Positions 22,811 to 54,004 are shown, counted from the stretch's first letter. The stretch: 64,000 bases of DNA from Candidatus Levyibacteriota bacterium (GCA_049519175.1 JBEKQZ010000002.1:6782-70781), one strand, 5' to 3'. Program-made: numbers and translations. The notes: generated by a model not told the origin, from the letters alone.

Positions 22811-22911
22811 GGGGTGGTGCGACTGGAAGGGCTCCCGACAGCGTGGATCGCATTCGCCGCGAAGCAAGACCGCGAGAACCCTGGCGGGAATGAAATCGAC
22901 GACAGGACCCC
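22811..22911 (+). ncRNA. structured repeat family 1, copy A (GGGGUGGUGCGA...GGAAGGGCUCCCGACAGCG...CUGGCGGGA...GACAGGACCCC)
   Basis: It shares conserved blocks with copies at 48194-48285 and 53914-54004. It sits in the convergent gap between fmt and rpmB. Its P2 and P4 regions diverge more than the other two copies. Confidence 0.55.
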
Positions 22912-22917
22912 GAGAGG

Positions 22918-23160
22918 TTAAGCTGCGGCTACGACTGGAGTGACTTCTGGAGCAATATCTATAGATTTGATATTAGCAGTTGCGCCTTTAAATTTTCGCA
23001 CGCACTTGGTGCAAAGTCTGACTTTCTTGGCTGTTCCGCCGACAATAATCCGAGCGCTGTGCAAGTTCGGTTTAAAGATTTTTCTGGTTCGGTTTTTGGC
23101 ATGGGAAACGTTGTGTCCATACATTACTCCCTTGCCGCAATTAAAACATATCGCTGCCAT
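22918..23160 (-). CDS. rpmB: 50S ribosomal protein L28
   Basis: C..CGK...G.NVSHAKNRTRKIFKPNLHS matches the L28 signature. 80 aa. Confidence 0.85.
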   Translation of the reverse strand: MAAICFNCGKGVMYGHNVSHAKNRTRKIFKPNLHSARIIVGGTAKKVRLCTKCVRKFKGATANIKSIDIAPEVTPVVAAA

Positions 23161-23208
23161 AGATAATTTCCTAGGTTAATAGTATACTAAAAAATAGGAA
23201 ATTTTACA

Positions 23209-23856
23209 ATGGACTTACTGTTAGGACTAGTTACTTTAATAATTTTGGTCTACTCGGCGATTTTGCATGAAATCGCCCACGGCTTTGTGGCGGAAAGATT
23301 AGGTGACCCGACCGCCCGGCTGATGGGCAGGCTGACTTTGAACCCAAAAAGCCACATTGATCCGTTTATGAGCATTTTGGTTCCGCTACTGCTGATTATT
23401 TCCGGCTCGCCGGTCATTTTCGGCGCCGCCAAACCGGTGCCTGTTGACCCGTTTAATTTCCGCGAGCCCAAAAAAGATATGGCTTTAGTTTCGCTGGCCG
23501 GTCCGGGCACCAATTTATTGATTGCACTTGTTTTTTCGCTAATCTGTCATTTGCTTTTCCCCGGACTTTCTTTTGACGTCATCAGAAGCGGCGGCATAAT
23601 CGGTTTTCTCTTGGGAACGGTTGTCTATATCAACTTGCTGCTGGCGATTTTTAATTTAATTCCAATTCCCCCACTCGACGGTTCAAAAATTTTTGCACTG
23701 ATACTTCCCGACCGCGAAGCAGCAGTTTATTTATCTATCGGCACGTTCGGAATTTTGATTATCTTTTTACTGCTGGTTTTCCCCATCGGCGGCCTTTCTT
23801 TAGGAGACTTGATGTCGAATTTACTTAACTTCTCCTTGCGGTTGCTGGGGCTGTGA
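23209..23856 (+). CDS. site-2 protease (peptidase M50) family membrane metalloprotease
   Basis: HEIAHG is the HExxH zinc motif inside a TM helix. The second motif is NLIPIPPLDGSKI. Confidence 0.8.
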   Translation: MDLLLGLVTLIILVYSAILHEIAHGFVAERLGDPTARLMGRLTLNPKSHIDPFMSILVPLLLIISGSPVIFGAAKPVPVDPFNFREPKKDMALVSLAGPGTNLLIALVFSLICHLLFPGLSFDVIRSGGIIGFLLGTVVYINLLLAIFNLIPIPPLDGSKIFALILPDREAAVYLSIGTFGILIIFLLLVFPIGGLSLGDLMSNLLNFSLRLLGL

Positions 23857-24546
23857 TAGAACACTTCTAACTCTTTCCCATCTACTTGGTTTGGCTGACT
23901 GTAGTTTTGTTTCCGGAATCGTTTGGACTTCTACCGGTGGTTGCTCGGTCGTAATCGGTCCATCCGCTTTAATAAAAGAGGCAACTGTATCTTGAAGTAT
24001 TTTATCTTCCGGCAACAATTTTATATCCGTCACATCTCTTACGGGTATTGGTTTCCCGATATCTCCCCTGTTAATTCCGAACGTTGGACCAACCCCTAGC
24101 GAGCCTGCTCCGACAATTCCTACTGCCTGCGTTCTATTTTTTTCATCACAAAAGATGAAAGTCTTTCCCGCGCCGACGTGAAACTCAAAATTTTCTACTG
24201 AAAAAGGCCAAGGTAAGATATCTTCTGGATGGGCCGCATGATAATCATTCGCCTTGAAAACATCCGGAGCATGCGAGCCAGAGCGATATTTTTCACCTAT
24301 AACCTCTGATCCGGGCCCAAAAGCATCTCCGTCAGACATTTTGGCCGGACGGATAAGTCCCCTTCTTTCCAAAACCACGTCAAGCATATGGTTTGTACCT
24401 TCGATGTAAGCCACAACTTCACGGTCTCTTTCTGGTGCTTTTACTTCTTTTGGATGTTTGTTGATATCTTGAGGTCTAAGACCTAAAGCTATGTCTGCCT
24501 TCGTCAGCTGTCTTGGTGATGACCCGGCCGGTTTAGTTTCTGCCAT
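23821..24546 (-). CDS. hypothetical protein (241 aa)
   Basis: The ORF overlaps the M50 gene 3' end by 36 nt, convergently. No motif. Confidence 0.5.
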   Translation of the reverse strand: MAETKPAGSSPRQLTKADIALGLRPQDINKHPKEVKAPERDREVVAYIEGTNHMLDVVLERRGLIRPAKMSDGDAFGPGSEVIGEKYRSGSHAPDVFKANDYHAAHPEDILPWPFSVENFEFHVGAGKTFIFCDEKNRTQAVGIVGAGSLGVGPTFGINRGDIGKPIPVRDVTDIKLLPEDKILQDTVASFIKADGPITTEQPPVEVQTIPETKLQSAKPSRWERVRSVLSQPQQPQGEVK

Positions 24547-24641
24547 AGCACTATCTTAAACAAATCTTATAGCTAATGTCAATTAGCAGGCTACTGTTCA
24601 TGCTCGCTACGTTAACGAGCGACTGCGAGCTGAACGCGTAG

Positions 24642-24712
24642 CAGGCCAGGAGGGAATCGAACCCCCAACAGAGGTTTTGGAGACCTCAGTTATGCCATTT
24701 AACTACTGGCCT
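24642..24712 (-). tRNA. tRNA-Trp (anticodon CCA)
   Basis: Reverse complement AGGCCAGTAGTTAAATGGCATAACTGAGGTCTCCAAAACCTCTGTTGGGGGTTCGATTCCCTCCTGGCCTG. The 7-bp acceptor is AGGCCAG/CTGGCCT, the anticodon loop is CUCCAAA, the T-loop is TTCGATT, and the discriminator is G. Confidence 0.9.
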
Positions 24713-24761
24713 ATGCTGCTATTATACTGGGAATAAAAGAATCTATCAATCGCGGAGAGAA

Positions 24762-24938
24762 CTATTTTAACTTTTCGTTTTCTTTGTGGTCGGTAACTTT
24801 TCTGCAGTGCTTGCAATATTTCTTTAATAATAACTTTTCCTCCGTATTAAGCTTATTTCTGGTCGTGACATAATTCCTGTTTTTGCAAACAGTGCAAACA
24901 AGACCTAAAGTTACCCTGTGTTCTCCCTTTTTTGCCAT
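24762..24938 (-). CDS. rpmG: 50S ribosomal protein L33 (58 aa; below the ORF-track length cut-off)
   Basis: My own translation is MAKKGEHRVTLGLVCTVCKNRNYVTTRNKLNTEEKLLLKKYCKHCRKVTDHKENEKLK*. It has the Cys4 zinc-ribbon pattern of L33. Position between tRNA-Thr and tRNA-Trp matches the common tuf-rpmG-trpT-secE arrangement. Confidence 0.85.
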   Translation of the reverse strand: MAKKGEHRVTLGLVCTVCKNRNYVTTRNKLNTEEKLLLKKYCKHCRKVTDHKENEKLK

Positions 24939-24986
24939 AATCGCTATCTTAGCAGAAACTCCTCTGAATTTGAAGAGCTAATATTG

Positions 24987-25058
24987 AGCCGGCTGTGGGA
25001 ATCGAACCCACGATCTAGTCATTACCAATGACTTGCTCTGCCACTGAGCCAAGCCGGC
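24987..25058 (-). tRNA. tRNA-Thr (anticodon GGU)
   Basis: Reverse complement GCCGGCTTGGCTCAGTGGCAGAGCAAGTCATTGGTAATGACTTAGATCGTGGGTTCGATTCCCACAGCCGGCT. The arms are canonical and the anticodon loop is AUUGGUAA. Confidence 0.9.
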
Positions 25059-25073
25059 CCGTCCCACGGTCAG

Positions 25074-25157
25074 TGCTGGGTGAGGGACTCGAACCCCCGC
25101 AGACCTTACGGTCATCTGGTCTACAGCCAGAGGCGATTGCCGCTACGCGAACCCAGC
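25074..25157 (-). tRNA. tRNA-Tyr (anticodon GUA), class II with a long variable arm
   Basis: Acceptor GCTGGGT/ACCCAGC, anticodon loop CUGUAGA, and a 15-nt variable arm TGACCGTAAGGTCTG. Confidence 0.9.
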
Positions 25158-25197
25158 AAGCCTACTAATTCTACACAATTTATGACTAAAAGTGAAG

Positions 25198-25971
25198 TTA
25201 ATTCTCCCAAAAATCAATAAGAGGTTTATAATTAGCTTCAATTTCTTTATATTCAACTTTAGATAATATTTCAAGTTTTATCTTGGGAAATTTCTTCCGG
25301 AATAATTTATCTCTTTCCAAAGAATAGTTATTCATAAAATTTTTTACTTCTATATACAAATCTTCAATCGGTAAATAAAAATCGGGTCTGTAAGTGTGTT
25401 GCCCAAGATCAAAAATCTTAGGCCCGTATTGCCACGTAACTCCTACTAAATTAAAAACGCGTGCGATATTGGCTTCCCAAGTACTATAAAAGCATATGCT
25501 TGAGTTTATATCGAGCCTTATGCCGGGTTTGCCTTTAGAGGCTTTTGGAGAGGTAGTTAATCTCCCAATTGTATATATTGCACATTTATTGCTGCAATAT
25601 TTTCTTTTAGAAGCAACGTAGGGTAGAATTGTAAATTCCTTTTTGCAACATAGGCAAACTTTTGTAATTCGTTTAACTTTTTTCAATCCCTTGAGCGGAC
25701 TATGAAAGCCTTGCAAAGCTAAAGAAATCTTTCTTTTTGTTTCTTCTGTTTGAAGCCGTTTCGCATTATTAAAAGAGGTGGCGCAGTTTTTGCTACAAAA
25801 TATTTTGGGGTCGCGTGGTTTAACCCAAAACGAGTTCGGACAGTTACCGTTCTTGCAATTTCTAGTCTCAAAGGGCTTTATTTTCTTGGCATATATTCCT
25901 TTTCGCCAATTAGTTTTGCTTATTGCTGACTGTTTTTGCCTGTATCTTAAGTCTGAATAGAAAGAATGCAT
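25198..25971 (-). CDS. homing-endonuclease-like protein: tandem Cys-rich zinc ribbons + NUMOD3-like motif + C-terminal PD-(D/E)XK (Vsr/DUF559-like) nuclease domain
   Basis: Two zinc ribbons: CKNGNCPNSF...CSKNCATSF, and CLCCKKEF...CSNKCAIY. ETKRKISLALQG resembles NUMOD3. The C-terminus YRPDFYLPIEDLYIEVK carries a PD...(D/E)xK motif. The gene sits between tRNA-Thr(UGU) and tRNA-Tyr. Confidence 0.6.
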   Translation of the reverse strand: MHSFYSDLRYRQKQSAISKTNWRKGIYAKKIKPFETRNCKNGNCPNSFWVKPRDPKIFCSKNCATSFNNAKRLQTEETKRKISLALQGFHSPLKGLKKVKRITKVCLCCKKEFTILPYVASKRKYCSNKCAIYTIGRLTTSPKASKGKPGIRLDINSSICFYSTWEANIARVFNLVGVTWQYGPKIFDLGQHTYRPDFYLPIEDLYIEVKNFMNNYSLERDKLFRKKFPKIKLEILSKVEYKEIEANYKPLIDFWEN

Positions 25972-25990
25972 ATACCACTAGCTCAAAATG

Positions 25991-26062
25991 AGCCGATGGG
26001 GAATCTTGCAATCCCGACCCATGCTTTACAAAAGCATTGCTCTACTTCTGAGCTACATCGGC
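25991..26062 (-). tRNA. tRNA-Thr (anticodon UGU) with a non-canonical T-loop, possibly a pseudo-tRNA
   Basis: Reverse complement GCCGATGTAGCTCAGAAGTAGAGCAATGCTTTTGTAAAGCATGGGTCGGGATTGCAAGATTCCCCATCGGCT. The acceptor, D and anticodon arms are good (loop UUUGUAA). The T-loop is UGCAAGA (G at position 55) and the D-loop lacks GG. Confidence 0.5.
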
Positions 26063-26396
26063 TGACGCTTTGATTTTATCAAAAACAGTACGAAGAAGAA
26101 AGCCCTCGGGGGCAAAAAGCAGAAATTACGATAAATTCGTCCTCGGTATCGAGATAAATTGATGTTTCCCCGAACTTATAAGCGGGTGGGCTCAATCTGT
26201 TCCACACGAGAACATGATAATTCGCCCTGTCTTCCGAAAATCGGAATACCCCAAGCTCAGTGAACCTGTAGAGGAAAATCTTACCAACTACCTCAAATAC
26301 CAAAGAACATATTTAGTATAAAGTGAACTTTCCACGCTGTCAACTTGACAATGGGTGTATAATCAAAAACTTTCTGTGTTATAATCGTCTTGCAAA

Positions 26397-27848
26397 ATGC
26401 TTGAGAGAGAAGATTTCTCCAACTTTGCCCGCGATAACCGCTTCGCACGGGAAGCTCCAAGGGAACTAAATGAAAAATGCGCAGTTTTCGGCATTATTAA
26501 TAAAGACGCAGCAATGCTGACCAACATGGGACTGTTTGCCCTCCAGCACCGTGGACAGGAAAGTTCGGGAATTTCCGTTTCGGATGGCGATGAAATCAAA
26601 ACGCGTAAAGCAGGTGGGTTGGTTGCTCAAGTCTATAGCGAACAAGATTTGGCAAGGCTTGAAGGTTCAATGGCCGTCGGACACAACCGCTACGGCACTT
26701 CCACAAAAGAAACTGCCGAGAAACACGCTCAACCCGTTCTTAATGACTCTCAAACTTTAGCTTTAGTTCATAATGGCAACCTGCCCGATACAACCAAATT
26801 GGAAGCATTTTTAAGCGAACAAGGCATTTCTCCCGACAGACTAAATGATAGCGAAATGATGCACGCGGCAATCGCCTATTTTGTTGACAGAGGAGCAACT
26901 TTAGAAAATGCAGTTTACGACGCTGTTCCATATTTTACCGGCTCTTTTTCTTTTTTGGCGATGGATAAGGAAAAAATTGTGGCTGTCCGCGACCAGCGCG
27001 GTATCCGGCCGCTTTCGATTGGACTGCTAAACGGCGGCTATATTTTTTCTTCGGAAACTTGCGCCATTGACATGCTGGGCGCCAAATACGTTCGCGATGT
27101 TGCTCCCGGAGAAATGGTTATCGCTCCCAAAGACGGCGGATTATTTTCAACCAATTTTGCAAAGGGAGAACAAAGACTGGACATTTTTGAATTTGTTTAT
27201 TTTTCCAGACCCGACAGTTATCTTTTAGGACAAAATGTCGACATAGTAAGAGAAAAGTTTGGCGAAACCCTATGGGAAGAAAACCACGTTAGAGGCGATA
27301 TTGTTGTTTCCGTTCTTGATTCCGGCACGCCGGCCGCCCAAGGATATGCGGCTGCGTCAGGTATTCCCTACAGAGATGGTCTTGTGAAAACCCGTTATGC
27401 GCCCCGGACTTTTATTCAACCCGGACAAGACCAACGCGTGCAAGCAGTCAGGATGAAACTTAATCCATTAAAAGAGGTTATCAAAGATAAAAGTTTAATC
27501 GTTGTCGATGACTCAATCGTCCGGGGCACAACGGCTCGGGCAATCGTCGCGCTTTTACGCCAAGCCGGCGCAAGAGAAGTGCATATGATGATTACTTCCC
27601 CACCGGTAAAATTTCCCGATTTTTATGGCATCGACACACCCAGACAAAGCGATTTAATTGCCGCTCAAAGAAGCATCGATGAAGTTCGCCGCTTTATTGG
27701 CGCCGATTCGCTTAACTATCTATCTTATGACGGAATGATTAAAGCCACAGGAATTCCCGAAGAGCGCTTCTCTACTGCTTGCTTTACAGGCATTTACCCA
27801 ATCGACATCGGCAAAAGAAAACAAGAAATTAGTTTCCATCCTCAATAA
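26397..27848 (+). CDS. purF: amidophosphoribosyltransferase
   Basis: Ntn-amidotransferase N-terminus with the catalytic Cys in EKCAVFGI after a propeptide. Also LQHRGQESSGI and the PRTase motif VVDDSIVRGTT. Confidence 0.9.
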   Translation: MLEREDFSNFARDNRFAREAPRELNEKCAVFGIINKDAAMLTNMGLFALQHRGQESSGISVSDGDEIKTRKAGGLVAQVYSEQDLARLEGSMAVGHNRYGTSTKETAEKHAQPVLNDSQTLALVHNGNLPDTTKLEAFLSEQGISPDRLNDSEMMHAAIAYFVDRGATLENAVYDAVPYFTGSFSFLAMDKEKIVAVRDQRGIRPLSIGLLNGGYIFSSETCAIDMLGAKYVRDVAPGEMVIAPKDGGLFSTNFAKGEQRLDIFEFVYFSRPDSYLLGQNVDIVREKFGETLWEENHVRGDIVVSVLDSGTPAAQGYAAASGIPYRDGLVKTRYAPRTFIQPGQDQRVQAVRMKLNPLKEVIKDKSLIVVDDSIVRGTTARAIVALLRQAGAREVHMMITSPPVKFPDFYGIDTPRQSDLIAAQRSIDEVRRFIGADSLNYLSYDGMIKATGIPEERFSTACFTGIYPIDIGKRKQEISFHPQ

Positions 27849-27897
27849 TTTTTGCCGCAAACTTTCTTTTCTTTTGCAAAAGTTCTAAACTAGTATT

Positions 27898-32624: not shown

Positions 32625-33047
32625 ATGGCCAAAAAAATTAAAACATTAATTAAAATCAATATTCCCGCGGGAGCGGCCACGCCTGCGCCACCGGTTGGCA
32701 CGGCGCTTGGTCCGCACGGGCTGCCGATTATGGAATTCGTCAAGGCGTTTAACGACCGCACTGCCGATCAAAAAGGCACCATTGTACCGGCTGTGATTAC
32801 TGTTTACGAAGACCGCACTTTTTCGTTTATCGTTAAAAAGTCACCGATTGCCGAAATGATTAAGAAAATAATGAATTTAGAAAAAGGTTCGGGCAAACCG
32901 GGCAATGAATCGGCCGGAACGCTGACAAAAGCGCAAGCCGAGCAAATTGCCAAAGACAAATTGGAAGACTTGAACACCGATGAAGTCAGTCAGGCAGTAA
33001 AAATTGTGGAAGGAGTTGCCCGTTCAATGGGCATTAAGGTAGCGTAA
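32625..33047 (+). CDS. rplK: 50S ribosomal protein L11
   Basis: PAGAATPAPPVGTALGPHG and the conserved L11 N-terminus. Confidence 0.95.
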   Translation: MAKKIKTLIKINIPAGAATPAPPVGTALGPHGLPIMEFVKAFNDRTADQKGTIVPAVITVYEDRTFSFIVKKSPIAEMIKKIMNLEKGSGKPGNESAGTLTKAQAEQIAKDKLEDLNTDEVSQAVKIVEGVARSMGIKVA

Positions 33048-33048
33048 T

Positions 33049-33861
33049 ATGGGAAAGATTAGAGTTAAAACTTTCGGCGACGAAGAGTTAGAACAAAAAC
33101 AACAGGCAAAAGCCCAAAAACGCAAAGAGGCCAAAAAAGCCGCTAAAGGCGTGGTGGCTGAACCAAAGGTTGAAGAAGTTGAAAAGAAAGTTGAGGAAGA
33201 AATCAAAGCTGAAGAAGCGCCAAAAGAAGAACGGAAAATCGTGGCAGAACCCCGCAAAAAACAAAAAGAACAAGCTGCTTTCCGTTCCCAGAAATATCAG
33301 GCGCTTTCCGGTCAGTTTGACAGAATTAAAACTTATTCCATTAAAGAAGCTTTGGAGCTTTTGGAAAAGCTACAACGCAAATCCTTTGACGAAACAGTCG
33401 AATTGCATTTAAACACGCTTACAAGCGGTATTTCCGGACAGATAACGCTCCCCCACGGCACCGGCAAAACCACCCAGGTTGCCATTACCACCGACACCTT
33501 AATTGCCGAAGTGGAAAAAGGGATTATCAATTTTGATGTTTTGGTGGCCGAACCGGCGATGATGGCAAAATTAGCCAAAGTCGCCAAGGTTTTGGGACCA
33601 AGAGGTTTAATGCCAAATCCGAAAAACGGCACTATTACGCCAAAGCCGGAAGAAGTCGCCAAAAAATACGCCGGCGGACAAATTAACTTTAAAACCGAGG
33701 CTAAAGCGCCGATTATGCACTTAACCGTCGGCAAAATGTCGTTTGGCCCGGAAAAACTGTCGGAAAACATTGAAGCTTTAATCGCCGCTGTCAAAAAACC
33801 TAACATCGTCAACGCCACTTTGAAATCAACGATGTCCCCGGGTCTAAAAATACGCATCTAA
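33049..33861 (+). CDS. rplA: 50S ribosomal protein L1 with a Lys/Glu-rich N-terminal extension
   Basis: L1 core VELHLNTL...PHGTGKT...GPRGLMPNPKNGT. The N-terminal ~60 aa are KE-rich. Confidence 0.9.
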   Translation: MGKIRVKTFGDEELEQKQQAKAQKRKEAKKAAKGVVAEPKVEEVEKKVEEEIKAEEAPKEERKIVAEPRKKQKEQAAFRSQKYQALSGQFDRIKTYSIKEALELLEKLQRKSFDETVELHLNTLTSGISGQITLPHGTGKTTQVAITTDTLIAEVEKGIINFDVLVAEPAMMAKLAKVAKVLGPRGLMPNPKNGTITPKPEEVAKKYAGGQINFKTEAKAPIMHLTVGKMSFGPEKLSENIEALIAAVKKPNIVNATLKSTMSPGLKIRI

Positions 33862-35987: not shown

Positions 35988-35991
35988 CCCT

Positions 35992-36168: not shown

Positions 36169-36228
36169 AATGTTTGAAAATTAAATCATTCATTAGAAAT
36201 TAGGAATTAAAAATTAGAAATTAAACTT

Positions 36229-36927
36229 ATGGACACAAAAGTTACAGCTAACAGACAAAAGAAAATCGCCATCGTTGCCGGACTAAACGAAAAAATCGCC
36301 CGTTCTAAAGCGATTATTTTTACCAATTTTGAAAAAGTCACCCACAAACAACTCGAAACTCTAAAAAAAGCCATCAAACCAATGGAAGCCGAATACGTCG
36401 TTGCCAAAAACTCTTTGATTTTAAGAGCTTTGGAAGAAAATAAGATTAAATTAGAAGGCGAAAATCCGCTCGTTGGCCCAACCGGCACGCTTTTACTTTA
36501 CGGAGATGTTGTCTCTCCATTAAAGCAATTGGCCAAAACCATTAAGGAATTGGGATTATTGAACGTTAAATTAGGGATTATGGAGAATAAATTTTTAACC
36601 GGAGAGCAGGTTCTAAAGATTTCCGCTCTTCCCACGCGAGATGTTTTACTGGCGCAAATCGCGGCCGGACTATTGTCCCCAATTTCGGGATTGCACCGCG
36701 CTTTAAATTGGAATTTGCAGAAATTAGTGATGACTTTGGGCGCAGTGGCTAAGAATAAACCCGCCGTTGCAGTTGTCGAAAAGAAAATTGAAGAAGTGAA
36801 AGCAGAAATGCCGGCAAGTGAACCGGAAACAATTTTGGCTGAAACTGCAGAAGAAAAAGCCGCAGAAGAACCAGCTCAAACAGAAGAAGTTAAAGAAGAA
36901 GTGAAAAGCGAAGGGGGTGAGAATTGA
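36229..36927 (+). CDS. rplJ: 50S ribosomal protein L10 with an acidic C-terminal extension
   Basis: L10 core ([35 protein letters not shown]...). It overlaps rplL by 4 nt. Confidence 0.9.
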
Positions 36928-43663: not shown

Positions 43664-46600
43664 TTATTGCGTTGGAGTTGGCGTGATGTTTAGTTGATTA
43701 ATGATTGATTGAAACGCCGCCGAGTCGGTCGCGGTTGGAATTGGCGTGACGTCCAAATTAAGCCCCGAAGTTTGCGCATCCCGCACTGATAATGCTACCC
43801 AGGAGAAACTAATATCTTCCGGCGCCGGTTTATTTAGCTTGATGACAAAACCTGTCGTGGTTCTTTGCGTAACCACGTAGGAAATATTATTATTAAGAAT
43901 TGTATCTTCCAGAGTTTGCTGCGTGGCGCTGTCCCCTGTTTTGTCCATAGCAATGCTGGCGGTGACCACCGGCGTGTTCACATATTCCTGATTGAAATTA
44001 ACTTGCACGCTGTCCAAGCCCTGTTGGATAACCGCAAATCCGGCGGTATCATTATTAAAGGTCGGCGTGGAATCAAAACGGACATTGCCTTTGAAAACCA
44101 CGTCCTGAATAAAGTAAGCAAACTGCGAAACCAAAAGGTTTTGGGTGGTAAGATTATTTAGAACATTCAACGCTCCCTGAATAAGGCCGTTGCCCCCAAC
44201 ATTTAGGTCGGCCGAAATAGTGGCTAAGCCGTCGACATTAAGACTGGTAAGAGTAAGCACTGTTGGAAGCTGTGCCGAACCGGTGGCCAGTTCCGCGCTC
44301 CCCGTCGCGTCCGCCAAAACCGCCGTGTTGTCATTAAGCGGTAGGGTCTGATCGGTGGGAATTTCCAATCCCCCGACTATTTCGTCGGCAATTAGCTTTT
44401 CGACGTGCAAAGTTCCGCTGATGGTGGCATCGCCGGTGTTCAAGCTATTTGAAGTTAATTGTCCGCTGAAACTGGCGTTCCCCTGATTATCAATGGTAGC
44501 AACCGCCAAACCCGAAGCTGAATTGCTATTCAAAACGGACAGCTGATTGCTATTTAGCTTTAAAGCGACATTTGCATTATCGTCTATTGGAACAATCAGA
44601 CTCGTCTGCAAAGTATTAACTGTTGCTAGCGGCGAAATTATAGTTTGACCGTTAGAAAGTGCAAATTGTGAATTCGAAATAGCGCTGGTAACAATACCGG
44701 TAATATAGTCTCTGACATTTTGTCCATTGATGGTGATATTTTCGCTGGCAACGCTTAAAGCATTAGTGGTAATTTGCCCGGCGTTGACAAATCCTACCCG
44801 CAAATTGGCAATCGCCGCGTCGGAAAATTCTCCGACTCGGGCAATCGGATTTCCTAAAGCATCATTTAGCGTAAAGTAATGCGGAATTGTGTAGTTGGTG
44901 TTGCTCGCGGTCTGGTCAACCAGATTCAAATTTCCGCTTGAAGTTAGATAAACCTGCGGATCATACCAAGTGGGATTGACATAAACCTCTATTTCTCCGC
45001 TGGTTCCAGCGTCAACCGCCATTCCGATTACCGGTCCGGCTTTAGTGGCTTTGACGGCAACTCCGGATGTGCTTGAATAAGTTAGATAGTCTCCTGGATT
45101 GATAGCGCCGTTTTGCGAATTTATCTCGGTCCTTAGCTGTCCTAGTAAACCGACGGTTACATAATCAGGGTCATCTTCGTGAGAATCATTTCCTAAAACA
45201 ATGTAAGAATTAGAAATAACGCCGAGTATTTGAGTATTATTGTTGTCGCATTTTATAACTCCACCATTTGTATCAATGCAAACCAAATCTCCCGGATTCA
45301 ACACGTCATTTGCATTTGCTTTTTTAAACCATTCGGCATAATCCCCGCCCGTTGAGCTAAGAGTTACACTGCTTCCGGTGCCCAGAATTTTTCCGATTAT
45401 TGTTCCGTTTCCGGTGGCAAAGTTAATATATCTGTCTGCAGAACCGGGTAATGCTCCGTTATTTGTCCCTAGTCTTAGCGATAAAGCAGTATGACAAGTT
45501 GAGTTGGTACAAGCGGCGTTGCCGGTATTTGGAAAGGCATTCCAAATTTGTGCCGAAGCCGTTGAAGAGCTGGAGCCAATCACCTGAAATTTAATGTTTC
45601 CCGAAGTGGATGCTGAAGCACCAAGCAGTAATTGGTTAGCACCTATGGATACTGTAGATGCCAATCCCGCGAAATTCAAAGTTCCGGTTAATCCGGTATT
45701 GAATAACGCTAACGTTCCTGAGGTTTGGTTTGTAGCAAGGGTTGTACCATTTAGCGTTATTGTTGCCGAAGAAGCTCCTAGAGTTAAGGCTGTTGCCGCC
45801 CCACCATAAGTTATTGTTGTCGGAGTCCCAAATTCCGTCAGCGTTGTAGCAGTTGTGTTTAGTGTATAGCTTGCCCCGGTATTCGGATTTAAACTCAAAG
45901 AGGTTGACGAAGTTAAAGTAGATAGCGAATTAGCCGTTATCGACGCACCGCTCGCGGTAATATTTCCGGTGTTACCTACCGTAAACATAGTCCAGCCGGA
46001 AGCGGAAGCGGTGAACAAATCGCCTACGCCATTATTATTAGCAACCAAAGCGGCAAAGGAAGTTCTACCCGAGACCGAAGCCGCCGGAACGGTTCCGTTC
46101 ATTGCCCGCACATCTAATGTGCTAGCGGGAGTAGTGGTGCCGATACCGACATAACCGGTATTATCCCGGACGGTCATGGCCGTTCCCCAAGTATTGAGTC
46201 CGGATTTATAACCAAAGTTTAAAGTGCCGTTGCCCGGTTCAATGGTGGAGCTGGTAGCTCCTCCAAGGACTAGTGTTGCCGACAAAGAGGCACTGCCGGT
46301 GGGAGCTCCCATGTTTAAGGTAGTAGCAGCTCCACCATAAGTTATTGTTGTCGGAGTCCCAAATTCCGTCAGCGTTGTAGCAGTTGTGTTTAGTGTATAG
46401 CTTGCCCCGGTATTCGGATTTAAACTCAAAGAGGTTGACGAAGTTAAAGTAGATAGCGAATTAGCCGTTATCGACGCACCGCTCATAGTTAGAGTGCTGG
46501 CTATGGTTAGCGCTCCGCCTGAACTCAAAGTATTACTTGAAGAAAAGAATTGGATGTTGCCGGTTGAACCGGAGTTAAGGGTTAAAGTATTTGAGCCGGT

Positions 46601-47864: not shown

Positions 47865-47895
47865 TTGACAAAGCTTGTATACTTGTGCATATAAT
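47865..47895 (+). promoter_or_regulatory. promoter candidate (TTGACA ... TATAAT, spacer ~19)
   Basis: TTGACAaagcttgtatacttgtgcaTATAAT lies upstream of 47913. The spacer is long, so confidence is low. Confidence 0.3.
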
Positions 47896-47912
47896 TATAT
47901 ATAATTGCATAT

Positions 47913-48191
47913 ATGGAAAATCTTTTGAACATCCGACAAGTTGCTTTTATTTTAAAAGTTCATCCGTTAACCGTTCGCCGTTATATTAAGGACGGTCGCT
48001 TAAAAGCGGTTAGAGTTGGCGGCAACGTCCGGATTAAAGAATCGCAGTTGTTGGACTTTAATAAAGATTTCTCTTCTGCCCCATCGAAAAAGCAAGTTGT
48101 GAAAAATAGCCTTAAACCGGCCAAAGTCTTTACCTTGGATGATCCGATTTTTCGGTTGAGAGGCAAAGGCGCAAGTCTTACCCTAAGTTAA
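47913..48191 (+). CDS. excisionase-family HTH DNA-binding protein (92 aa)
   Basis: LLNIRQVAFILKVHPLTVRRYIKDGRLKAVRVGGNVRIKESQL is paralogous to the 37453 product. Confidence 0.7.
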   Translation: MENLLNIRQVAFILKVHPLTVRRYIKDGRLKAVRVGGNVRIKESQLLDFNKDFSSAPSKKQVVKNSLKPAKVFTLDDPIFRLRGKGASLTLS

Positions 48192-48193
48192 GA

Positions 48194-48285
48194 GGGGTGG
48201 TGCGATTGGAAGGGCTCCCGACAGCGCGCAAGCCAGTGAGTCGTGAGTGAGCACTGGCGGGAGGGAAAAATCGCGACAGGACCCC
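48194..48285 (+). ncRNA. structured repeat family 1, copy B
   Basis: GGGGUGGUGCGAUUGGAAGGGCUCCCGACAGCGCGCAAGCCAGUGAGUCGUGAGUGAGCACUGGCGGGAGGGAAAAAUCGCGACAGGACCCC. Four nested helices: P1 GGGGU/ACCCC, P2 GCGAUU/AAUCGC, P3 CUCCCG/CGGGAG, P4 CCAGUG/CACUGG. Confidence 0.6.
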
Positions 48286-48302
48286 ACCAAAGGGAATTAT
48301 TT

Positions 48303-48722
48303 ATGATTAGTAAGAAAGTTTACATTGAACCAAGCGGATTTTTTGCTTTTATTGACAGAGCCAATCCTAAGTATGAGCAAGCCGCGGCCTATTTTCGCTA
48401 TTTTGCGCAGGAAGGATACGCACTTTTCACAGATTACCAAACCATTACTGAAAGTTATAACCATATTTACCGGGAGATCAGCCCATCGTTGGCCAAAGAT
48501 TTTTTGCGCACGGTTTTTTTAAGCGACATCAACATTATCTATCCGGAAGAACGAGATATTAAGGCGGCTTTAAAAACGTTGGTGAACTTTCAATCGACAG
48601 AATTAACTTTCTCGAAAGCAATTAAAGCGGTTTTAGCCAACCGCAGAGGTATCGGGCAGGTTTTTACTTTTGAATATTTACATCCGTTGTTTGGCCAGAA
48701 CACATTTTATTTGCCAATCTAA
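48303..48722 (+). CDS. hypothetical protein, possible degenerate PIN-like domain (139 aa)
   Basis: The track ORF starts at 48243 inside the repeat, so the likely start is the Met at 48303 (MISKKVYIEPSGFFAFID...). Acidic residues are spaced like a PIN domain, but the first Asp is replaced by Glu. The call is weak. Confidence 0.4.
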   Translation: MISKKVYIEPSGFFAFIDRANPKYEQAAAYFRYFAQEGYALFTDYQTITESYNHIYREISPSLAKDFLRTVFLSDINIIYPEERDIKAALKTLVNFQSTELTFSKAIKAVLANRRGIGQVFTFEYLHPLFGQNTFYLPI

Positions 48723-48740
48723 AACAAGGATTAAGGATTA

Positions 48741-50036
48741 ATGATTAAAGAATTAAGAAAAATAACAAAAGGAGGCAATTCACTTTTAAACGAATCGAAA
48801 GTCGTCAAGATTAACGTTGATTTTATGTCTAAATTGCTAAAAAGACTTTCGTTAAGCGAGCAAAGGCTAGGTAATTCTTACCAAGAACTGAAGCGAGCGA
48901 CGTTTGAAAAGTGTGATTGCCGACTGTTGTTGAAAAGATTTTCGTTAGCAACGATATTATTTTCTATAGCAATTTTGAGCCTATTTTTTGCACCACGGGC
49001 GCTTGCCGGACCGACCAGCACCACCTACCAAGTGGTTGACTATGGTTTTGGCGCCGGCGGAATTGCTACTACTTCGGGCGCCAGCAACAAATATATGCTA
49101 CAAGGAATTGCCGGAGAATTGGAATTTGCCAGTCCGAGCTCTTCTAACTATATGGCTTGGCCGGGTTTAACTTATACCGAACAACCGGCTGTCCCGTCAG
49201 CGCCGACTTTTACCAACCCTTCCAACTACTATAACAAACTGCATATTACTATAAATCAAGGCAGTGAACTATCTGATACTGTATACGCCATTTCTATCTC
49301 AACTGATAATTTTGCTAGCAACATTAAATATGTTCAAGCCGACGAAACTGTCGCGTCGGTGGCAGTTTGGCAGTCTTACGGAACATCCGGCGGCTCCCCA
49401 ACTGCCTGGCACGGTTCCGACGGAATTGATATTATTGGTTTAACTCCCGGCACTACTTATTACGCCAGAATAGTTGCCGGACGAGGAACTTTTACGCAAG
49501 GCGTTCCCGGTCCGACGGTTTCGGCGGCCACTGTTAATCCAAAATTAACTTACTCTTTAACCACTACCCGTTTTAGCGCTCCACCTTATGTGGTTGTCAT
49601 TAATAATATTGACCCCGGCGGCGCGGTTAAAACTTCCGACGACCAAATTACCGCCAACATTTCCACCAACGGCGCTAATGGCGGATCAATTTTGGTTTCC
49701 AGCGCCAACGGAGCATTGGTTAGCACCAGCGTTCCGGGAAATCCGATTACCAGCGCCACCAACAATTTAGATAGCGTTTCACAAGGATATGGCGCACAAG
49801 GAGTAAGCGTTTCGCAAAGTTCCGGCGGACCACTGGCGCTAGTTTCACCATACAATACTACTACCGGCAATAATGTGGGAATTCTTGATACCAATAAACG
49901 GGTTTTTGCCAGCTCGACCGTTCCTGTTACCAACGGTTCGGCAACTTTTGTTTTAAAAGCTAAAGTCGCCGCCGGCTCCAGTCCGGCAACCGACTACACT
50001 GATAAATTAATTATTTTGGCCAACGGCGCATTTTAG
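48741..50036 (+). CDS. secreted surface protein, paralogue family A (C-terminal motif ...PATDYTDKLIILANGAF*)
   Basis: The signal-peptide-like segment is at aa ~66-88, so the start may be the downstream TTG at ~48927. An FN3-like strand is TPGTTYYARIVAGRG. The C-terminal 17 aa are nearly identical to the C-terminus of the next gene. Confidence 0.65.
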   Translation: MIKELRKITKGGNSLLNESKVVKINVDFMSKLLKRLSLSEQRLGNSYQELKRATFEKCDCRLLLKRFSLATILFSIAILSLFFAPRALAGPTSTTYQVVDYGFGAGGIATTSGASNKYMLQGIAGELEFASPSSSNYMAWPGLTYTEQPAVPSAPTFTNPSNYYNKLHITINQGSELSDTVYAISISTDNFASNIKYVQADETVASVAVWQSYGTSGGSPTAWHGSDGIDIIGLTPGTTYYARIVAGRGTFTQGVPGPTVSAATVNPKLTYSLTTTRFSAPPYVVVINNIDPGGAVKTSDDQITANISTNGANGGSILVSSANGALVSTSVPGNPITSATNNLDSVSQGYGAQGVSVSQSSGGPLALVSPYNTTTGNNVGILDTNKRVFASSTVPVTNGSATFVLKAKVAAGSSPATDYTDKLIILANGAF

Positions 50037-50099
50037 ATAAAATGGCCTATTGACAAAAGTTTTAAAAAATGTTTTGCTTAATTATAGCAATAACTATTT

Positions 50100-51224
50100 A
50101 TGGATTTATCCAAATTCAGAATAAATAAAGATCCTAAAGCTGCCTTAAGTATTCTTCTGCAGTTGTCTCTCCTTCTAGTCAGTGTTTCCTACGCTTTACT
50201 TTATCCGCCAAAAGCTAACGCGGCGACATTTGTCACGCTTAGACTAGACCGGCAATATGCCAGCGTAGCACTAGCCGGAGTAGCTTGTATTAAACCAACC
50301 GCCGCCAGTCAATCCGACACCAAAGTGATTATTACTTTTCCTTCAACTTTTACGCTTGATACAACAGTCGCCAATTGGTCGGTTGATACCACTGCCACCA
50401 ACTTACCTAGCACCACTACCGGCGATGCTTTTACCGCTACCGCTTGGACGGGCATTTCTGCCAAACCAATGCTGGTTGACAATTCCACCAAAGCCGCCAT
50501 TTTTACCAGCACCCAATTAACTTCATCTTCTAACTATTATTGTTTCCATTTTAACGGCGGCGCCAGTTCGAATGTCGGAGCGGCGGGCAATGACGAATAT
50601 GGATATATCCAAACCTGGAAATCACCTGGAGTAAATGTCGAAAACGATCAGTATGCGGTTTCTATTGTCAGCGGCACCAACGGTGAGCAAATCGAAATTA
50701 AAGCCACTGTCTCTGCCGCCTTTACTTTTTCTTTGTCCGGCGGAGCCGGAGCTGGAGCCACCGCTGCTGCATCATTACCGCTTGGTATTATTTCGGCCAG
50801 CACCGTCACGACAGCTCCGTATACTGCAACAGCCACTATTTCGACCAACGGCACGAACGGGTTCTTAGCTTGGATTAAAGACGGCAACGCTGCCTTATAT
50901 TCAAACACCACCGGGCAAAATATACCTACTGTAGCTTACAATGGCGGTTCGCCAACGACGCTTACAAACGGCAGTAACGGTTATGGTGTTTGGGCAGCCA
51001 CCGGAACAAATTCTCCAACTATTGCTACGATGTATAATACCGGGCAAACAGGAACATCAGTTGGCGCAATTAGTGATACTGCTTTTTCGCTGATTGCCAG
51101 TAAAACCGGCGCTTATTCGGGAGAGACATTTCTTTTTGGCGTCCGTGCTGCGCCTGCCTACACAATTACGCCTGCCACCGACTATACCGACGTTTTAACC
51201 GTCGTTGCATCCGGCTCTTTCTAA
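50100..51224 (+). CDS. secreted surface protein, paralogue family A (C-terminal ...PATDYTDVLTVVASGSF*); its N-domain is homologous to that of the 39808 product
   Basis: It has a signal peptide, the shared N-terminal domain, and the shared C-terminal beta-strand-like motif ending in Phe. Confidence 0.7.
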   Translation: MDLSKFRINKDPKAALSILLQLSLLLVSVSYALLYPPKANAATFVTLRLDRQYASVALAGVACIKPTAASQSDTKVIITFPSTFTLDTTVANWSVDTTATNLPSTTTGDAFTATAWTGISAKPMLVDNSTKAAIFTSTQLTSSSNYYCFHFNGGASSNVGAAGNDEYGYIQTWKSPGVNVENDQYAVSIVSGTNGEQIEIKATVSAAFTFSLSGGAGAGATAAASLPLGIISASTVTTAPYTATATISTNGTNGFLAWIKDGNAALYSNTTGQNIPTVAYNGGSPTTLTNGSNGYGVWAATGTNSPTIATMYNTGQTGTSVGAISDTAFSLIASKTGAYSGETFLFGVRAAPAYTITPATDYTDVLTVVASGSF

Positions 51225-52272
51225 CATGAACCATGGCAAAAAATTATTGCTTCTGCCAATACTCTTCGTTTTGGCGATTTTATTTTTGCCGGTAAAAACT
51301 TTTGCCCAAACCCCCGGCGGTTATGATGTCACAGTCTCCCCCATTTTCTTTGATTTATCTACCACTCCGGGGGGTAATGTGTCTGGCACCATTAAGATTA
51401 GAAACAATACCGCCTATCCTTTACCGCTTAAATTGGGAGTGCAAAGATTAACCGGAGATTTAAGTGGTAATTACAGTTTAAAAGCCGACAAGAATGATGA
51501 AACACTGTCCTGGGTTAGTTTCTCCCAGCCCACCTTTGTCGCCAACCCTCTGGAGTGGACCCAAATTCCCTTCACCATCAATGTTCCCAAAGATGTAGCT
51601 TATGGTTACTACTGGACCATTACCTTTGCCCAGGATACTACCAATCCTCTCTTCAAAAGCGGAGTCAGTTTAACCGGCGCCGCCGGAGTGCCAATCCTGT
51701 TGAACGTACTAAAGCCCGGGGAGAAAGCCGACGCCAAAATCACTCAATTTAGCGTCGGGCAATTTGTCAATGAATATTTGCCGATTAACTTTACGGTTAA
51801 AATTGAAAATTTAGGTAACATCCACGTTCAGCCCCACGGCAGCATTTTCATTAGTGACGGCCGTAACAAAGATTTGGCGGTTTTGGATGTCAATCCGGGG
51901 CTTGGCAACGTTATTCCGCAGTCTGCCCGGATTTTCAACGCTTCCTGGGACGACGGATTTTTAGAAATGGAGCCGGTCACGCAGTTTGGTCAGCCAAAAC
52001 TGGATAAAAACGGCAAACCGTTGGAGACTTTACAGATTAACTGGGATAAATTAACCGAGTTTAGAATCGGTCGCTACACCGCCAATCTGGTGATGGTTTA
52101 TGACAATGGCAAAGTCGATGTCCCGCTGGAATCAACCATTACTTTTTGGGTTTTGCCTTGGAAAGCGATGGGCGTAATTCTGATTTCGCTAATCGTGATT
52201 TTCCTGGTCGGCAGATTCTTGATTAGAACTTACATTAAACGCGAAATCGCCAAAAGAACCAGAGCCGCTTAG
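51205..52272 (+). CDS. secreted protein with a C-terminal TM anchor and basic tail, paralogue family B (DUF916/DUF3324-like architecture)
   Basis: It has a signal peptide and two beta-rich domains. The C-terminus VLPWKAMGVILISLIVIFLVGRFLIRTYIKREIAKRTRAA is a TM helix plus a Lys/Arg tail. The architecture is shared with 52945-53877. Confidence 0.7.
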   Translation: MHPALSNMNHGKKLLLLPILFVLAILFLPVKTFAQTPGGYDVTVSPIFFDLSTTPGGNVSGTIKIRNNTAYPLPLKLGVQRLTGDLSGNYSLKADKNDETLSWVSFSQPTFVANPLEWTQIPFTINVPKDVAYGYYWTITFAQDTTNPLFKSGVSLTGAAGVPILLNVLKPGEKADAKITQFSVGQFVNEYLPINFTVKIENLGNIHVQPHGSIFISDGRNKDLAVLDVNPGLGNVIPQSARIFNASWDDGFLEMEPVTQFGQPKLDKNGKPLETLQINWDKLTEFRIGRYTANLVMVYDNGKVDVPLESTITFWVLPWKAMGVILISLIVIFLVGRFLIRTYIKREIAKRTRAA

Positions 52273-52868
52273 TCCGCAAATTTAATTGTGGGAATTAATA
52301 AATTGAATAAATCGTTTTCCGCCTGCTGGTCCGGACTTTCGAAAACAAAAGTATAGATTTTTCCGTTGAGCAAAAAGAAAACCGTTTTTTCGTAGCCGGC
52401 TGTCATATCATATTTTGAGAACTCTAAACCCTGCTGGTTATCGACGGAGACTGTAGTTTGCGTGTAAGTGGTCGTATCTTCCCACCTTAAGCGTACACCG
52501 GAATAATCACTTAGTGTCTGCGCGCTGGGATAAGCTATCACTTCACTAAAAAAATGCGTGTGCGAATCGCTTAAATCAAAACCAAAATGTTCCAAATCAT
52601 TATACTGATACGGCTGTCCATTAGTGTATAAAATGAACGCTTTTGCCGCCTTCGGATAAAGAAACGACACGTATTTACCCTGGTGCAAGACGTTTCCGGT
52701 AATTACCGGCGCCGCTTTCAGCACCACTTGCCTGCCCAAAATATTTTCTAAAGCCTGTTGCTTTTGGGCCGCGGTTAACGTTGCCTGCGGGCGGTTAAGA
52801 ATAAGAAAAGCAGCTACAAACAGCCCGAGAATCACTAGGAGAAACACTGATAATATTATCTTCTTCAT
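52269..52868 (-). CDS. hypothetical membrane-anchored protein
   Basis: The track ORF extends to 52895, but the likely start is MKKIILSVFLLVILGLFVAAF at 52868. N-terminal TM. Confidence 0.5.
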   Translation of the reverse strand: MKKIILSVFLLVILGLFVAAFLILNRPQATLTAAQKQQALENILGRQVVLKAAPVITGNVLHQGKYVSFLYPKAAKAFILYTNGQPYQYNDLEHFGFDLSDSHTHFFSEVIAYPSAQTLSDYSGVRLRWEDTTTYTQTTVSVDNQQGLEFSKYDMTAGYEKTVFFLLNGKIYTFVFESPDQQAENDLFNLLIPTIKFAD

Positions 52869-52891
52869 GAATTTATGATACCATAAAATAG

Positions 52892-52975
52892 GCAAATTTC
52901 TAATTCTTAATTTTTAATTTCTAAACAAATCCAAATGTCAAAAAATGAAAATTAAAAATCGCAAATTAAAAATCG
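52892..52975. repeat. AT-rich intergenic repeat family 3 copy (includes a tandem AAATTAAAAATCGC x2)
   Basis: Matches 18642-18748. Confidence 0.45.
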
Positions 52976-53877
52976 CAGTATTCTTAATACTTACTACTGG
53001 CTACTTAGTACTTGCTACTGGCAAAGCGCTTGCCCAAACACAAAAAGGGATTACGGTTGAGCCCTCGATTATGCACATTGATCTTTCCACCGACCAGCCG
53101 GAATATGATTTAACCTATATCAACAGCACCAATTACGCCGTCGGGCTAACCATAAGCGTCCAGGATTTTTCGGCGCTTAGCGACACTTATCAAATTGATT
53201 ATCTTTCGCCTGCCGATGCCGCCAACTACAAATATTCGCTGTCATCTTGGCTGACATTTGAAAATAAAAATTTTGATTTAAATCCCGGCGAAAAAAAGAG
53301 CATCAAAGTTTACATCGATAAAACCAGAATCACCAAAGGCGGCCATTACGCCGCTATTTTGGCCGAAATCGGCGCCCCCAACGGCGGACAAAATTCTAAC
53401 GTCAAAGCGGTTCTTTCCAGCTTGTTGTTTGTGCGTGCCGACACCGGACAGGAAATTGAAGACGGCAAAATCGTCACTTTTGAGCCCAACCGCGACTGGC
53501 TGGAATTTCCGGACAGCTTTATCGTGCGTTTCCAAAACAACGGCAACGTCCACGTCATTCCTTATGGCTTGATTAAAATTTACGACCCGCTGAATAATCT
53601 TGTTACCCAGGGCACTTTTAATATGGACTCTTTGGACGCCTTGCCAGAAAGTATCCGCCGCTACGATACCGATATTGAAGTTTACCAAAAAGTGCTTCTG
53701 CCGGGAACTTACACGGCCAAAATTGCTCTGCATTTTGGCGACACCAACCGAAAAACTTCCGCCACGGTCCAGTTTTATTCCGAAGGAATGTTTGATTTCC
53801 CCAAAATCGGCCTGGGACTGATTATAATTTTGTTAGTGAGCCTTTACCTCCGCAAAAAACTGTCCAAAAAATCTTAA
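52945..53877 (+). CDS. secreted protein with a C-terminal TM anchor, paralogue family B
   Basis: It has a signal peptide. The C-terminus IGLGLIIILLVSLYLRKKLSKKS is a TM helix with a basic tail. The two-domain beta architecture matches the 51205 product. Confidence 0.7.
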   Translation: MKIKNRKLKIAVFLILTTGYLVLATGKALAQTQKGITVEPSIMHIDLSTDQPEYDLTYINSTNYAVGLTISVQDFSALSDTYQIDYLSPADAANYKYSLSSWLTFENKNFDLNPGEKKSIKVYIDKTRITKGGHYAAILAEIGAPNGGQNSNVKAVLSSLLFVRADTGQEIEDGKIVTFEPNRDWLEFPDSFIVRFQNNGNVHVIPYGLIKIYDPLNNLVTQGTFNMDSLDALPESIRRYDTDIEVYQKVLLPGTYTAKIALHFGDTNRKTSATVQFYSEGMFDFPKIGLGLIIILLVSLYLRKKLSKKS

Positions 53878-53885
53878 ACAAGCGC

Positions 53886-53909
53886 AGTGAGCTTGCAAAA
53901 TTTTCGCTG
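53886..53909 (+). repeat. partial copy (24 nt) of repeat family 2, abutting family 1 copy C
   Basis: agtgagcttgcaaaattttcgctg matches the 5' arm of the 157-nt elements at 56248 and 61727. Confidence 0.5.
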
Positions 53910-53913
53910 ATAA

Positions 53914-54004
53914 GGGGTGGCAGGAGTGGAAAGGCTCCCGACAGCGCGCAGATCAGTGAGTCGTGAATGAGCACTGGCGGGAGGGAAACTCCTGACAGGA
54001 CCCC
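53914..54004 (+). ncRNA. structured repeat family 1, copy C
   Basis: GGGGUGGCAGGAGUGGAAAGGCUCCCGACAGCGCGCAGAUCAGUGAGUCGUGAAUGAGCACUGGCGGGAGGGAAACUCCUGACAGGACCCC. P2 is CAGGAG/CUCCUG, a full compensatory change against copy B. Confidence 0.6.

Follow-up and report, generated by a model that had tools for sequence, protein, structure and literature searches.

A hairpin repeat shared by intergenic spacers and protein-coding genes in Microgenomates/Patescibacteria: a candidate family of coding-compatible palindromic elements

What kind of element is the structured repeat found three times in a 64,000-nucleotide stretch of DNA (hereafter, the window) from Candidatus Levyibacteriota bacterium (GCA_049519175.1, JBEKQZ010000002.1:6782-70781)? 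The three copies, here called A, B and C, all lie on the + strand (22811-22911, 48194-48285 and 53914-54004), and an initial annotation had interpreted them as a noncoding RNA (ncRNA), a 3′ untranslated region (3′UTR)/terminator element or a riboswitch-like motif rather than a mobile element. We favour, with moderate confidence, a different reading, namely that they belong to a new family of coding-compatible palindromic repeats of Microgenomates/Patescibacteria, comparable in type to Rickettsia palindromic elements (RPEs) and to REPINs, the doublets of repetitive extragenic palindromic (REP) sequences. The copies themselves are real: the 14-mer GGCTCCCGACAGCG occurs exactly three times within the window, a covariance-model scan of the window returned A, B and C and nothing weaker, and a hidden Markov model trained on metagenome copies alone retrieved all three. 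The mean column identity among them was 77% (MAFFT).

We searched for further members in two ways. The first scan, covering one genome per species, used a pattern of the putative loops only and left the helices unbiased; it returned 25 loci, comprising three chance matches and 22 true homologues, the latter all in metagenome-assembled genomes of Patescibacteria (Levybacteria, Roizmanbacteria and WWE3). The second, independent pattern gave at least 118 loci in metagenomes, and the covariance model identified 107 copies in the first 100 of these. Among the matches listed, nhmmer found about 150 copies across 144 sources, all Patescibacteria/Microgenomates. The core measures 79-118 nt across the family, and the unit is typically 99 nt long. 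The element matched no Rfam family: Rfam 15 gave no match at the gathering score over the whole window, and copies A, B and C taken singly gave only chance-level matches at E ≤ 10. The element was absent from phage and plasmid collections, two pattern matches in IMG/VR being due to chance. Literature searches returned no account of the element; their coverage was incomplete, so an earlier description is possible.

The fold was obtained with RNAalifold on a plain MAFFT alignment, which independently reproduced the covariance-model fold and comprises helices P1 to P4 and a variable apex, P5. In this fold, P1 (GGGGU/ACCCC) is followed by an internal loop (GG / ACAGG), P2 has 6-7 bp of fully variable sequence and is followed by a second internal loop (UGGAARGG / GGGAAA), and P3 (CUCCCG/CGGGAG) is followed by an A.G mismatch and then by P4 (CAG-C-GC / GC-A-CUG). 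The elements of this fold in copy C, the top match to the family model, are as follows.

53914-53918, + strand: P1 5′ strand, GGGGU, pairing with ACCCC at 54000-54004
53921-53927, + strand: P2 5′ strand, CAGGAGU, pairing with ACUCCUG at 53988-53994; the fully variable, covarying helix
53928-53934, + strand: conserved purine-rich internal loop GGAAAGG, facing GGAA at 53984-53987
53935-53940, + strand: P3 5′ strand, CUCCCG, pairing with CGGGAG at 53978-53983
53942-53947, + strand: P4 5′ strand, CAG-C-GC, pairing with GC-A-CUG at 53971-53976; supersedes the P4 first proposed
53948-53970, + strand: apical module P5, consisting of GCA, the hairpin UCA-GUGAGUCG-UGA, and GA

The purine-rich loop GGAAAGG was less invariant among copies found by a pattern that did not specify it. 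Helices P1, P2 and P3 are those of the initial annotation, including the exchange of GCGAUU/AAUCGC in copy B for CAGGAG/CUCCUG in copy C, and its claim of nested helices with double-sided covariation was upheld on an alignment of about 100 sequences. Its P4 (CCAGUG/CACUGG) was unsupported, the partner of CACUG being the CAG.GC of GACAGCGC, directly after GACAG; the C-G to U-G change cited for that helix falls outside any real pair, and CAGUG is part of the variable, optional P5 apex.

The larger alignment was compared with column shuffles. The proportion of paired cells was 95.6%, compared with 83.9% in the shuffles (0 of 500 shuffles reached 95.6%), and double-sided changes were seen in 261 cells, compared with 65; when the 3′ partner was slid by 1-3 columns as a control, only 27-43% remained paired. 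Even the outermost pair of P1 appeared in five forms (GC 63, CG 26, AU 4, UA 4 and UG 3). On the + strand, G-U pairs outnumbered A-C pairs by 44 to 8, and among copies antisense to a host gene by 11 to 1. This excess on the element strand, which holds even for antisense-embedded copies, indicates that the fold is selected on the element's own strand, regardless of the direction of the host gene. Folding z-scores on the + strand were -2.0 for copy B and -3.5 for copy C; copy A folded on par with shuffles.

Across the family the P5 apex varies in length and in type, with at least three types. One class places a variable hairpin within a conserved internal loop of its own, GUUCG ... RAGACUA (loci L006, L013, L017, L020 and L021, and copy A at 22844-22879), and another has a conserved 8-nt loop, GUGARUCG. 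These apex classes look like swappable sub-modules.

Pairing continues beyond P1. Positions -3/+3 and -4/+4 paired in 84 and 70 of 120 copies, respectively, compared with about 36-38 expected for Watson-Crick pairs, and -1/+1 and -2/+2 were mostly A.G and G.A. Near-identical elements are found in unrelated flanks (for example, two on contig L058), and their identity stops 4-5 nt outside P1. Together, the outer pairing and the identity boundary indicate that the unit forms a closed hairpin 8 nt longer than the core (91 + 8 = 99), reaching 4 nt past P1 at either end (N N G A ... G A N′ N′). The 'UGA' in front of many sense-oriented copies belongs to the element, which explains why copies seem to begin right at a stop codon. 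Direct-repeat tests (k = 2-6) detected no target-site duplication (TSD) of 3 bp or more at any offset; the only excess was of palindromic dinucleotides, which is accounted for by pairing of the outermost helix, P0.

We further examined the copies that lie inside genes. A copy was regarded as embedded if an open reading frame (ORF) continued for at least 40 codons on each side, and the 139 copies with both ends defined served as the base. On this definition, 60 of 139 copies (43%) were embedded, 48 antisense to the ORF and 12 sense. The core length was 1 mod 3 in 49 of the 60 embedded copies, compared with 34 of the 79 others. A single reading frame was used by 47 of the 48 antisense-embedded copies and encodes the peptide RGPV..FPPASA..[apex]..LRAVGSPS..TP; the peptides encoded by sense-oriented copies are unrelated. 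Among intergenic copies each of the three antisense frames is stop-free in about 70%, so stop codons alone cannot account for the use of one frame; the frame used gives a Pro/Gly/Ser/Ala-rich peptide, whereas the other two give hydrophobic or Cys-rich ones. The hosts confirmed by Pfam were RecJ, TGT, P-type ATPase, RadA-like ATPase, transketolase, M24 peptidase, PrsA, ribosomal protein L1, 6PGD-like dehydrogenase, DUF2298, GT2, TrxB-like reductase and WecG; leucyl-tRNA synthetase (LeuRS; three copies), TopA and DnaX were recognised by eye, and MetAP and Def are also among the host genes.

The frame and multiple-of-three length constraints imply that embedded copies are read through as protein, and by the same constraints we ruled out that they are introns or are bypassed. 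In protein alignments the insert sites coincide with length-variable loops, and in one AlphaFold2 model, of a filled Def, the core had pLDDT values of 85-97 and the insert values below 50. Judging from frame statistics, embedded copies appear to be translated as a disordered protein loop. A profile of the insert peptide gave only four significant matches among 5.8 billion proteins, because the query is too short for a database of that size.

Insert-free orthologues are known for many hosts, including at least four genes of the window. The unoccupied counterparts in the window are as follows.

21413-21955, + strand: def gene, unoccupied; the loop at 21645-21691 is the counterpart of the filled Def site
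33043-33858, + strand: rplA, unoccupied; the orthologues at L010 and L113 carry a sense copy in an N-terminal extension
58217-58942: WecG-like gene, unoccupied
10586-11194: TopA-like gene, unoccupied
Wzy_C/TPR gene, unoccupied

L103, L156 and a further dozen or so Def homologues have this def loop filled with a copy in sense orientation or with what remains of one. Among the best 120 Def homologues, about 76 had a loop of 15-16 residues and about 13 had a recognisable sense-oriented element there, and graded remnants bridged the full element and the short loop. Sites that are filled in some genomes and empty in others, nearly identical copies within unrelated flanks and decay by degrees are what a dispersed repeat element shows, and the initial view that the element is not a mobile one finds no support in them.

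The orientation of the copies is not random with respect to base composition. GC skew on the element strand was negative at 52 of 68 de-duplicated loci (p = 1.4e-5), and when the skew was split by gene direction, its gene-independent component was -0.061 and was negative in 35 of 43 loci; in other words, orientation is biased to the C-rich strand, independent of gene direction. Copies sharing one locus were on the same strand in 10 of 12 loci, and no positional regularity of copies was seen. The + strand of the window, which carries all three copies, is C-rich throughout (negative skew in 14 of 16 4-kb bins, with no switch over 64 kb), which is reminiscent of reports of monotonic skew in some genomes of Microgenomates (PMC7143001).

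On the reading that we favour, the unit is a closed irregular hairpin made of P0 (2 bp plus tandem G.A), P1, P2, P3, P4 and a variable P5, with purine-rich loops between them, and the whole hairpin would be copied, or would formerly have been copied, to new sites without target duplication. Copies would survive where they are harmless, that is, in short intergenic spacers or in protein surface loops. Within a gene, survival would depend on a unit that is a multiple of three and lies in the stop-free antisense frame or in an open sense frame, and the embedded copy would then be translated as a Pro/Gly/Ser/Ala-rich disordered segment. The paired ends, the free stems with invariant loops, the strand preference, the lack of a TSD and the orientation by strand composition together resemble systems that act on folded single-stranded DNA (ssDNA). 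By analogy with these, the element probably spreads via a structured single strand, likelier DNA than RNA, and a structure-specific enzyme in the style of REP/RAYT (RAYT, REP-associated tyrosine transposase), IS200/IS605 or attC would recognise the folded strand.

Several results weigh against this reading. Neither a transposase nor any other partner is linked to the element. Clustering of the proteins from all loci brought up Y1_Tnp and GIY-YIG genes, which are not adjacent to it: the Y1_Tnp genes amount to seven ORFs in 6 of about 137 loci, 1-8 kb from elements, and their ±500-nt flanks contained no element by nhmmer at E ≤ 10 but did contain other small hairpins. There is no Y1 gene within the window. 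Also, no clean junction between empty and filled sites was obtained, so that the exact boundaries are unreadable: exact-protein look-ups of the genes beside copies A and B for empty strain-level alleles returned only filled related contigs, and the closest filled/empty def pair, L156 and the window (89-96% identity), differs by a replaced, diverged segment. Translation of the inserts is itself inferred from frame statistics.

The conservation of orthologous copies points in the same direction. Intact orthologous copies were more conserved than their mostly coding flanks in 42 of the 46 pairs whose flanks were less than 97% identical, a comparison limited to pairs in which both members are still detectable; in one pair the copies were identical over 91 of 91 nt, compared with 62-72% at flanking third codon positions, and in another the values were 88% and 46%. 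Flank identity showed no gradient indicating co-conversion, and we rejected concerted evolution as the cause, as copies within one genome differ freely in P2 and P5. Such an excess is not predicted by purely selfish, neutrally decaying DNA. Finally, orthologous GT2 genes carry the same subfamily at the same site in opposite orientations, which would need in-place inversion or site-specific re-insertion. For P0, this GT2 subfamily has a longer Watson-Crick stem, with a different sequence from genome to genome, and the Tgt site is occupied by different subfamilies.

The IS200-like Y1_Tnp (RAYT-like) genes at L056:3529-5719, L118:11725-12417 and L085:1468-2181 have short REP-like hairpins of their own, for example ATTCCACCTCTAAGGTGGAAT and AAAAAATGCACCTCGCAGGTGCATTTTTT, and are a separate REP/RAYT system in the same genomes.

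A tentative alternative, which we hold to be rather unlikely, is that the element is more than tolerated junk, namely a structured single-stranded module actively maintained in essential genes of the Candidate Phyla Radiation (CPR), either as a strand-specific genome-wide signal, for example for replication, priming or recombination, or as the substrate of a new structure-guided 'homing' system. In the homing variant, the same hairpin would repeatedly be installed or flipped at an orthologous site without co-conversion of the flanks. Either variant, if true, would amount to a kind of replicator or signal as yet undescribed among bacteria.

A related explanation, which we regard as rather unlikely, is that the element is a functional structured signal of the host, domesticated or never selfish, acting as ssDNA or as a cruciform in replication, priming, recombination or chromosome organisation (cf. 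the roles proposed for REPs and for bacterial interspersed mosaic elements), with its tolerance of reading frames as a side effect. The conservation excess over adjacent coding DNA would fit such a signal, as would the orientation to the C-rich strand irrespective of gene direction, the common strand of copies at one locus, and the compensatory changes between orthologous copies, such as the four to five double changes between the RecJ copies of L015 and L109. However, close relatives lack the insert at many sites, copies erode into remnants, P2 is gone from window copy A, and a positional regularity is not apparent. Moreover, stem changes between orthologous copies comprised 26 pair-breaking changes compared with 24 double compensations; mapping by fixed offsets overstates the pair breaks, and the pairs compared are findable only because both members are intact.

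We consider it improbable that the element is an independent + strand ncRNA or a cis-regulatory 3′UTR element, such as a small RNA, a ribozyme, a riboswitch-like motif or an mRNA stabiliser. The strong covariation, the invariant internal loops and the + strand G-U excess would be expected of such an RNA. All three window copies, in agreement with the initial annotation, lie 3′ of + strand genes, and copy A ends a convergent gene pair. Across the family, however, that arrangement dissolves: co-directional, divergent and convergent intergenic settings are all represented, no recurrent neighbouring gene was found across copies, and the 43% of copies inside ORFs are mostly antisense to the host mRNA and in frame, with frame and length constraints under which they are read as protein. 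Neither are the copies accompanied by a promoter, a terminator or a U-tract: T-run enrichment was absent at +1 to +15 in 120 copies, and promoter/terminator scans around copies B and C placed no signal on the element and no terminator-like site at either copy; an Rfam match is likewise lacking.

A classical MITE (miniature inverted-repeat transposable element), here meaning an insertion sequence of the DDE-transposase type that has been cut down by deletion and is moved by a transposase binding its terminal inverted repeats, is very improbable: the element is small, multi-copy, hairpin-forming and located both between and within genes, as a MITE would be, but a check for the hallmarks of a MITE found neither a TSD of 3 bp or more at any offset nor a conserved terminal inverted repeat, the P0 termini and P2 vary so that conservation among the end pairs is limited to the 5 bp of P1, the conserved parts are internal loops and not arms, and no version with cargo came up in about 1 Mb of loci, where a split-halves search gave only variant full copies and four chance matches in high-GC contigs. 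Least probable of all is a protein-level module, with the peptide selected for host-protein function and the DNA palindrome incidental, since the single frame and conserved peptide motif of the antisense-embedded copies are set against the facts that more than half of the copies are intergenic, that sense-oriented copies give unrelated peptides, that conservation reaches synonymous positions and base-pairing, and that the insert is predicted to be disordered in functionally unrelated host proteins.

The three window copies differ in state, and their full units, neighbours and, for copy B, helices are given below.

22807-22915, + strand: copy A, full unit; core from P1 to P1 at 22811-22911; 77.9 bits
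21988-22806, + strand, and 22918-23160, - strand: fmt and rpmB, the convergent neighbours of copy A
48190-48289, + strand: copy B, full unit; core 48194-48285; 106.2 bits
47913-48191, and from 48303: HTH_17 gene and 139-aa gene, the neighbours of copy B
48194-48198/48281-48285, + strand: copy B P1
48201-48207/48269-48275, + strand: copy B P2
48215-48220/48258-48263, + strand: copy B P3
48222-48227/48251-48256, + strand: copy B P4
48228-48250, + strand: copy B P5 apex
53910-54008, + strand: copy C, full unit; core 53914-54004; 116.8 bits
52945-53877 and 54069-56213: 310-aa gene and SBBP/fn3/LysM surface protein gene, the neighbours of copy C

Copy A, which has a long 'type iii' apical hairpin, is the diverged member by its bit score. 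Its P2 is broken and its P3 is weakened, with C.A as the first pair; the orthologue on the syntenic contig L156 retains a perfect P2 (UGUCGAU/AUCGACG). Judged from its sequence, copy A is decaying, P2 having been lost. Contig L156 is syntenic with window positions 18753-23840 and has the Wzy_C/TPR gene split into four ORFs and fmt into two; these fragmented genes suggest indel assembly errors, so that single-base details there need care.

Around copy B, public gene calls include a 159-aa ORF (48243-48722) that begins at a GTG within the copy, with counterparts at L144:1886-2365 and L145:3331-3810. A start at the ATG at 48303 (139 aa) is more likely for this gene, the gene callers being misled by the stop-free frames of the element. 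Contig L148 (981-1081) shares with the window the HTH_17 gene and copy B's 5′ half, but inside the element it switches to the 3′ half of another copy (P2 3′ strand UCGGCG), with unrelated DNA downstream; this represents either a recombinant of two copies or a chimera that the repeat produced during assembly.

Directly upstream of copy C, at 53886-53910, lies an 18-25-nt piece (GAGCTTGCAAAATTTTCG) of a second repeat, 'family 2', as the initial annotation had correctly stated. This repeat is about 135 nt long and has full copies at 56246-56380 and 61725-61859, 89% identical to each other. It had no Rfam match and was absent from the 156 fetched loci, and from these searches it appears to be specific to the genome of the window.

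Other observations in the window concern different sequences. A group I intron match (57.8 bits) lies at 2736-2947 (- strand), about 900 nt from a bacterial 16S rRNA gene at 3821-5199 (- strand), which aligns over only about 1380 nt; introns in rRNA genes are common in CPR bacteria, and this one presumably falls within the neighbouring rRNA gene. An AT-rich motif (AATTTCTAATTT...) recurs intergenically just upstream of genes (18646-18704, 36189-36229 in inverted orientation, 52895-52953 and 61662-61720) and could be a promoter/UP-like element or another repeat. A 181-nt direct repeat (45773-45953 and 46304-46484, 95% identical and 531 nt apart) inside a - strand ORF of 1380 aa is an internal protein repeat.

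If the copies are indeed dispersed palindromic repeats, ultra-small CPR genomes carry a hairpin repeat in the coding sequence of core enzymes (RecJ, Tgt, LeuRS, MetAP, DnaX, TopA and L1), and the phenomenon known from RPEs would have arisen independently in a second group of reduced genomes. This would bear on the persistence of selfish or semi-domesticated DNA in genomes that are extremely streamlined, and it may indicate a structure-specific mobilising enzyme. There are also practical consequences, in that low-complexity inserts of 31-37 aa would inflate or split domain matches, and the repeat is apparently able to produce chimeric metagenome contigs, as at L148. With its covarying stems and invariant loops, the element offers a test case for structural selection at the DNA level as opposed to the RNA level.

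We finally compared the element with known systems. Cis-regulatory RNAs and ribozymes share with it the conserved loops, the covarying helices and the variable apical stem, but the present element lacks an Rfam match and is not consistent in the genes beside it or in its position, and it lies in ORFs, where embedded copies are constrained as coding sequence. The attC sites and IS200/IS605 elements are alike in that structure is kept and stem sequence is free, one strand is active, unpaired bases are conserved and TSDs are lacking. In contrast to attC sites, the present ends are NNGA-GGGGU...ACCCC-GANN with no R″/R′ boxes (RYYYAAC / GTTRRRY), and the copies are kilobases apart or inside genes, with no cassette arrays and no adjacent integrase; in contrast to IS200/IS605, there is no adjacent TnpA/TnpB, and the ends pair together instead of forming separate left-end and right-end hairpins. 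The REP/REPIN-RAYT systems likewise have strand-specific hairpins that are kept by compensatory change, show no TSD and stay in place at orthologous sites. They differ in being extragenic, compared with 43% intragenic copies here, and in that their repeats flank the cognate RAYT (Y1) gene, whereas the Y1 genes found here are bordered by other, simpler hairpins and not by the present element; it is also one multi-loop hairpin and not a doublet of 20-40-nt REPs.

The closest parallel is with RPEs. RPEs are about 150 bp long, number dozens to hundreds of copies per genome, and in many cases lie in-frame in unrelated genes with a conserved peptide and predicted compatibility with the protein fold (PMC10969869, PMC1458961; Ogata et al. 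2000 as summarised there). Both sets are dispersed palindromes, roughly 100-150 bp long, in small and reduced genomes; many members of each set are in-frame in unrelated housekeeping ORFs and encode a conserved peptide, the rest being intergenic; the inserts of both are predicted to be compatible with the protein fold, and neither set is linked to a known mobilising enzyme. The likeness meant here is one of kind and behaviour. The present element occurs in an unrelated lineage (CPR/Microgenomatia), is shorter (about 99 nt), has five helices with invariant internal loops and freely covarying stems, and is mostly antisense to the host gene; in addition, those of its orthologous copies that are intact show higher conservation than the host gene does, and its orientation bias is like that of a replication strand. 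Even with these differences, the nearest known phenomenon is the Rickettsia palindromic element, and this resemblance exceeds that to a riboswitch-like RNA.

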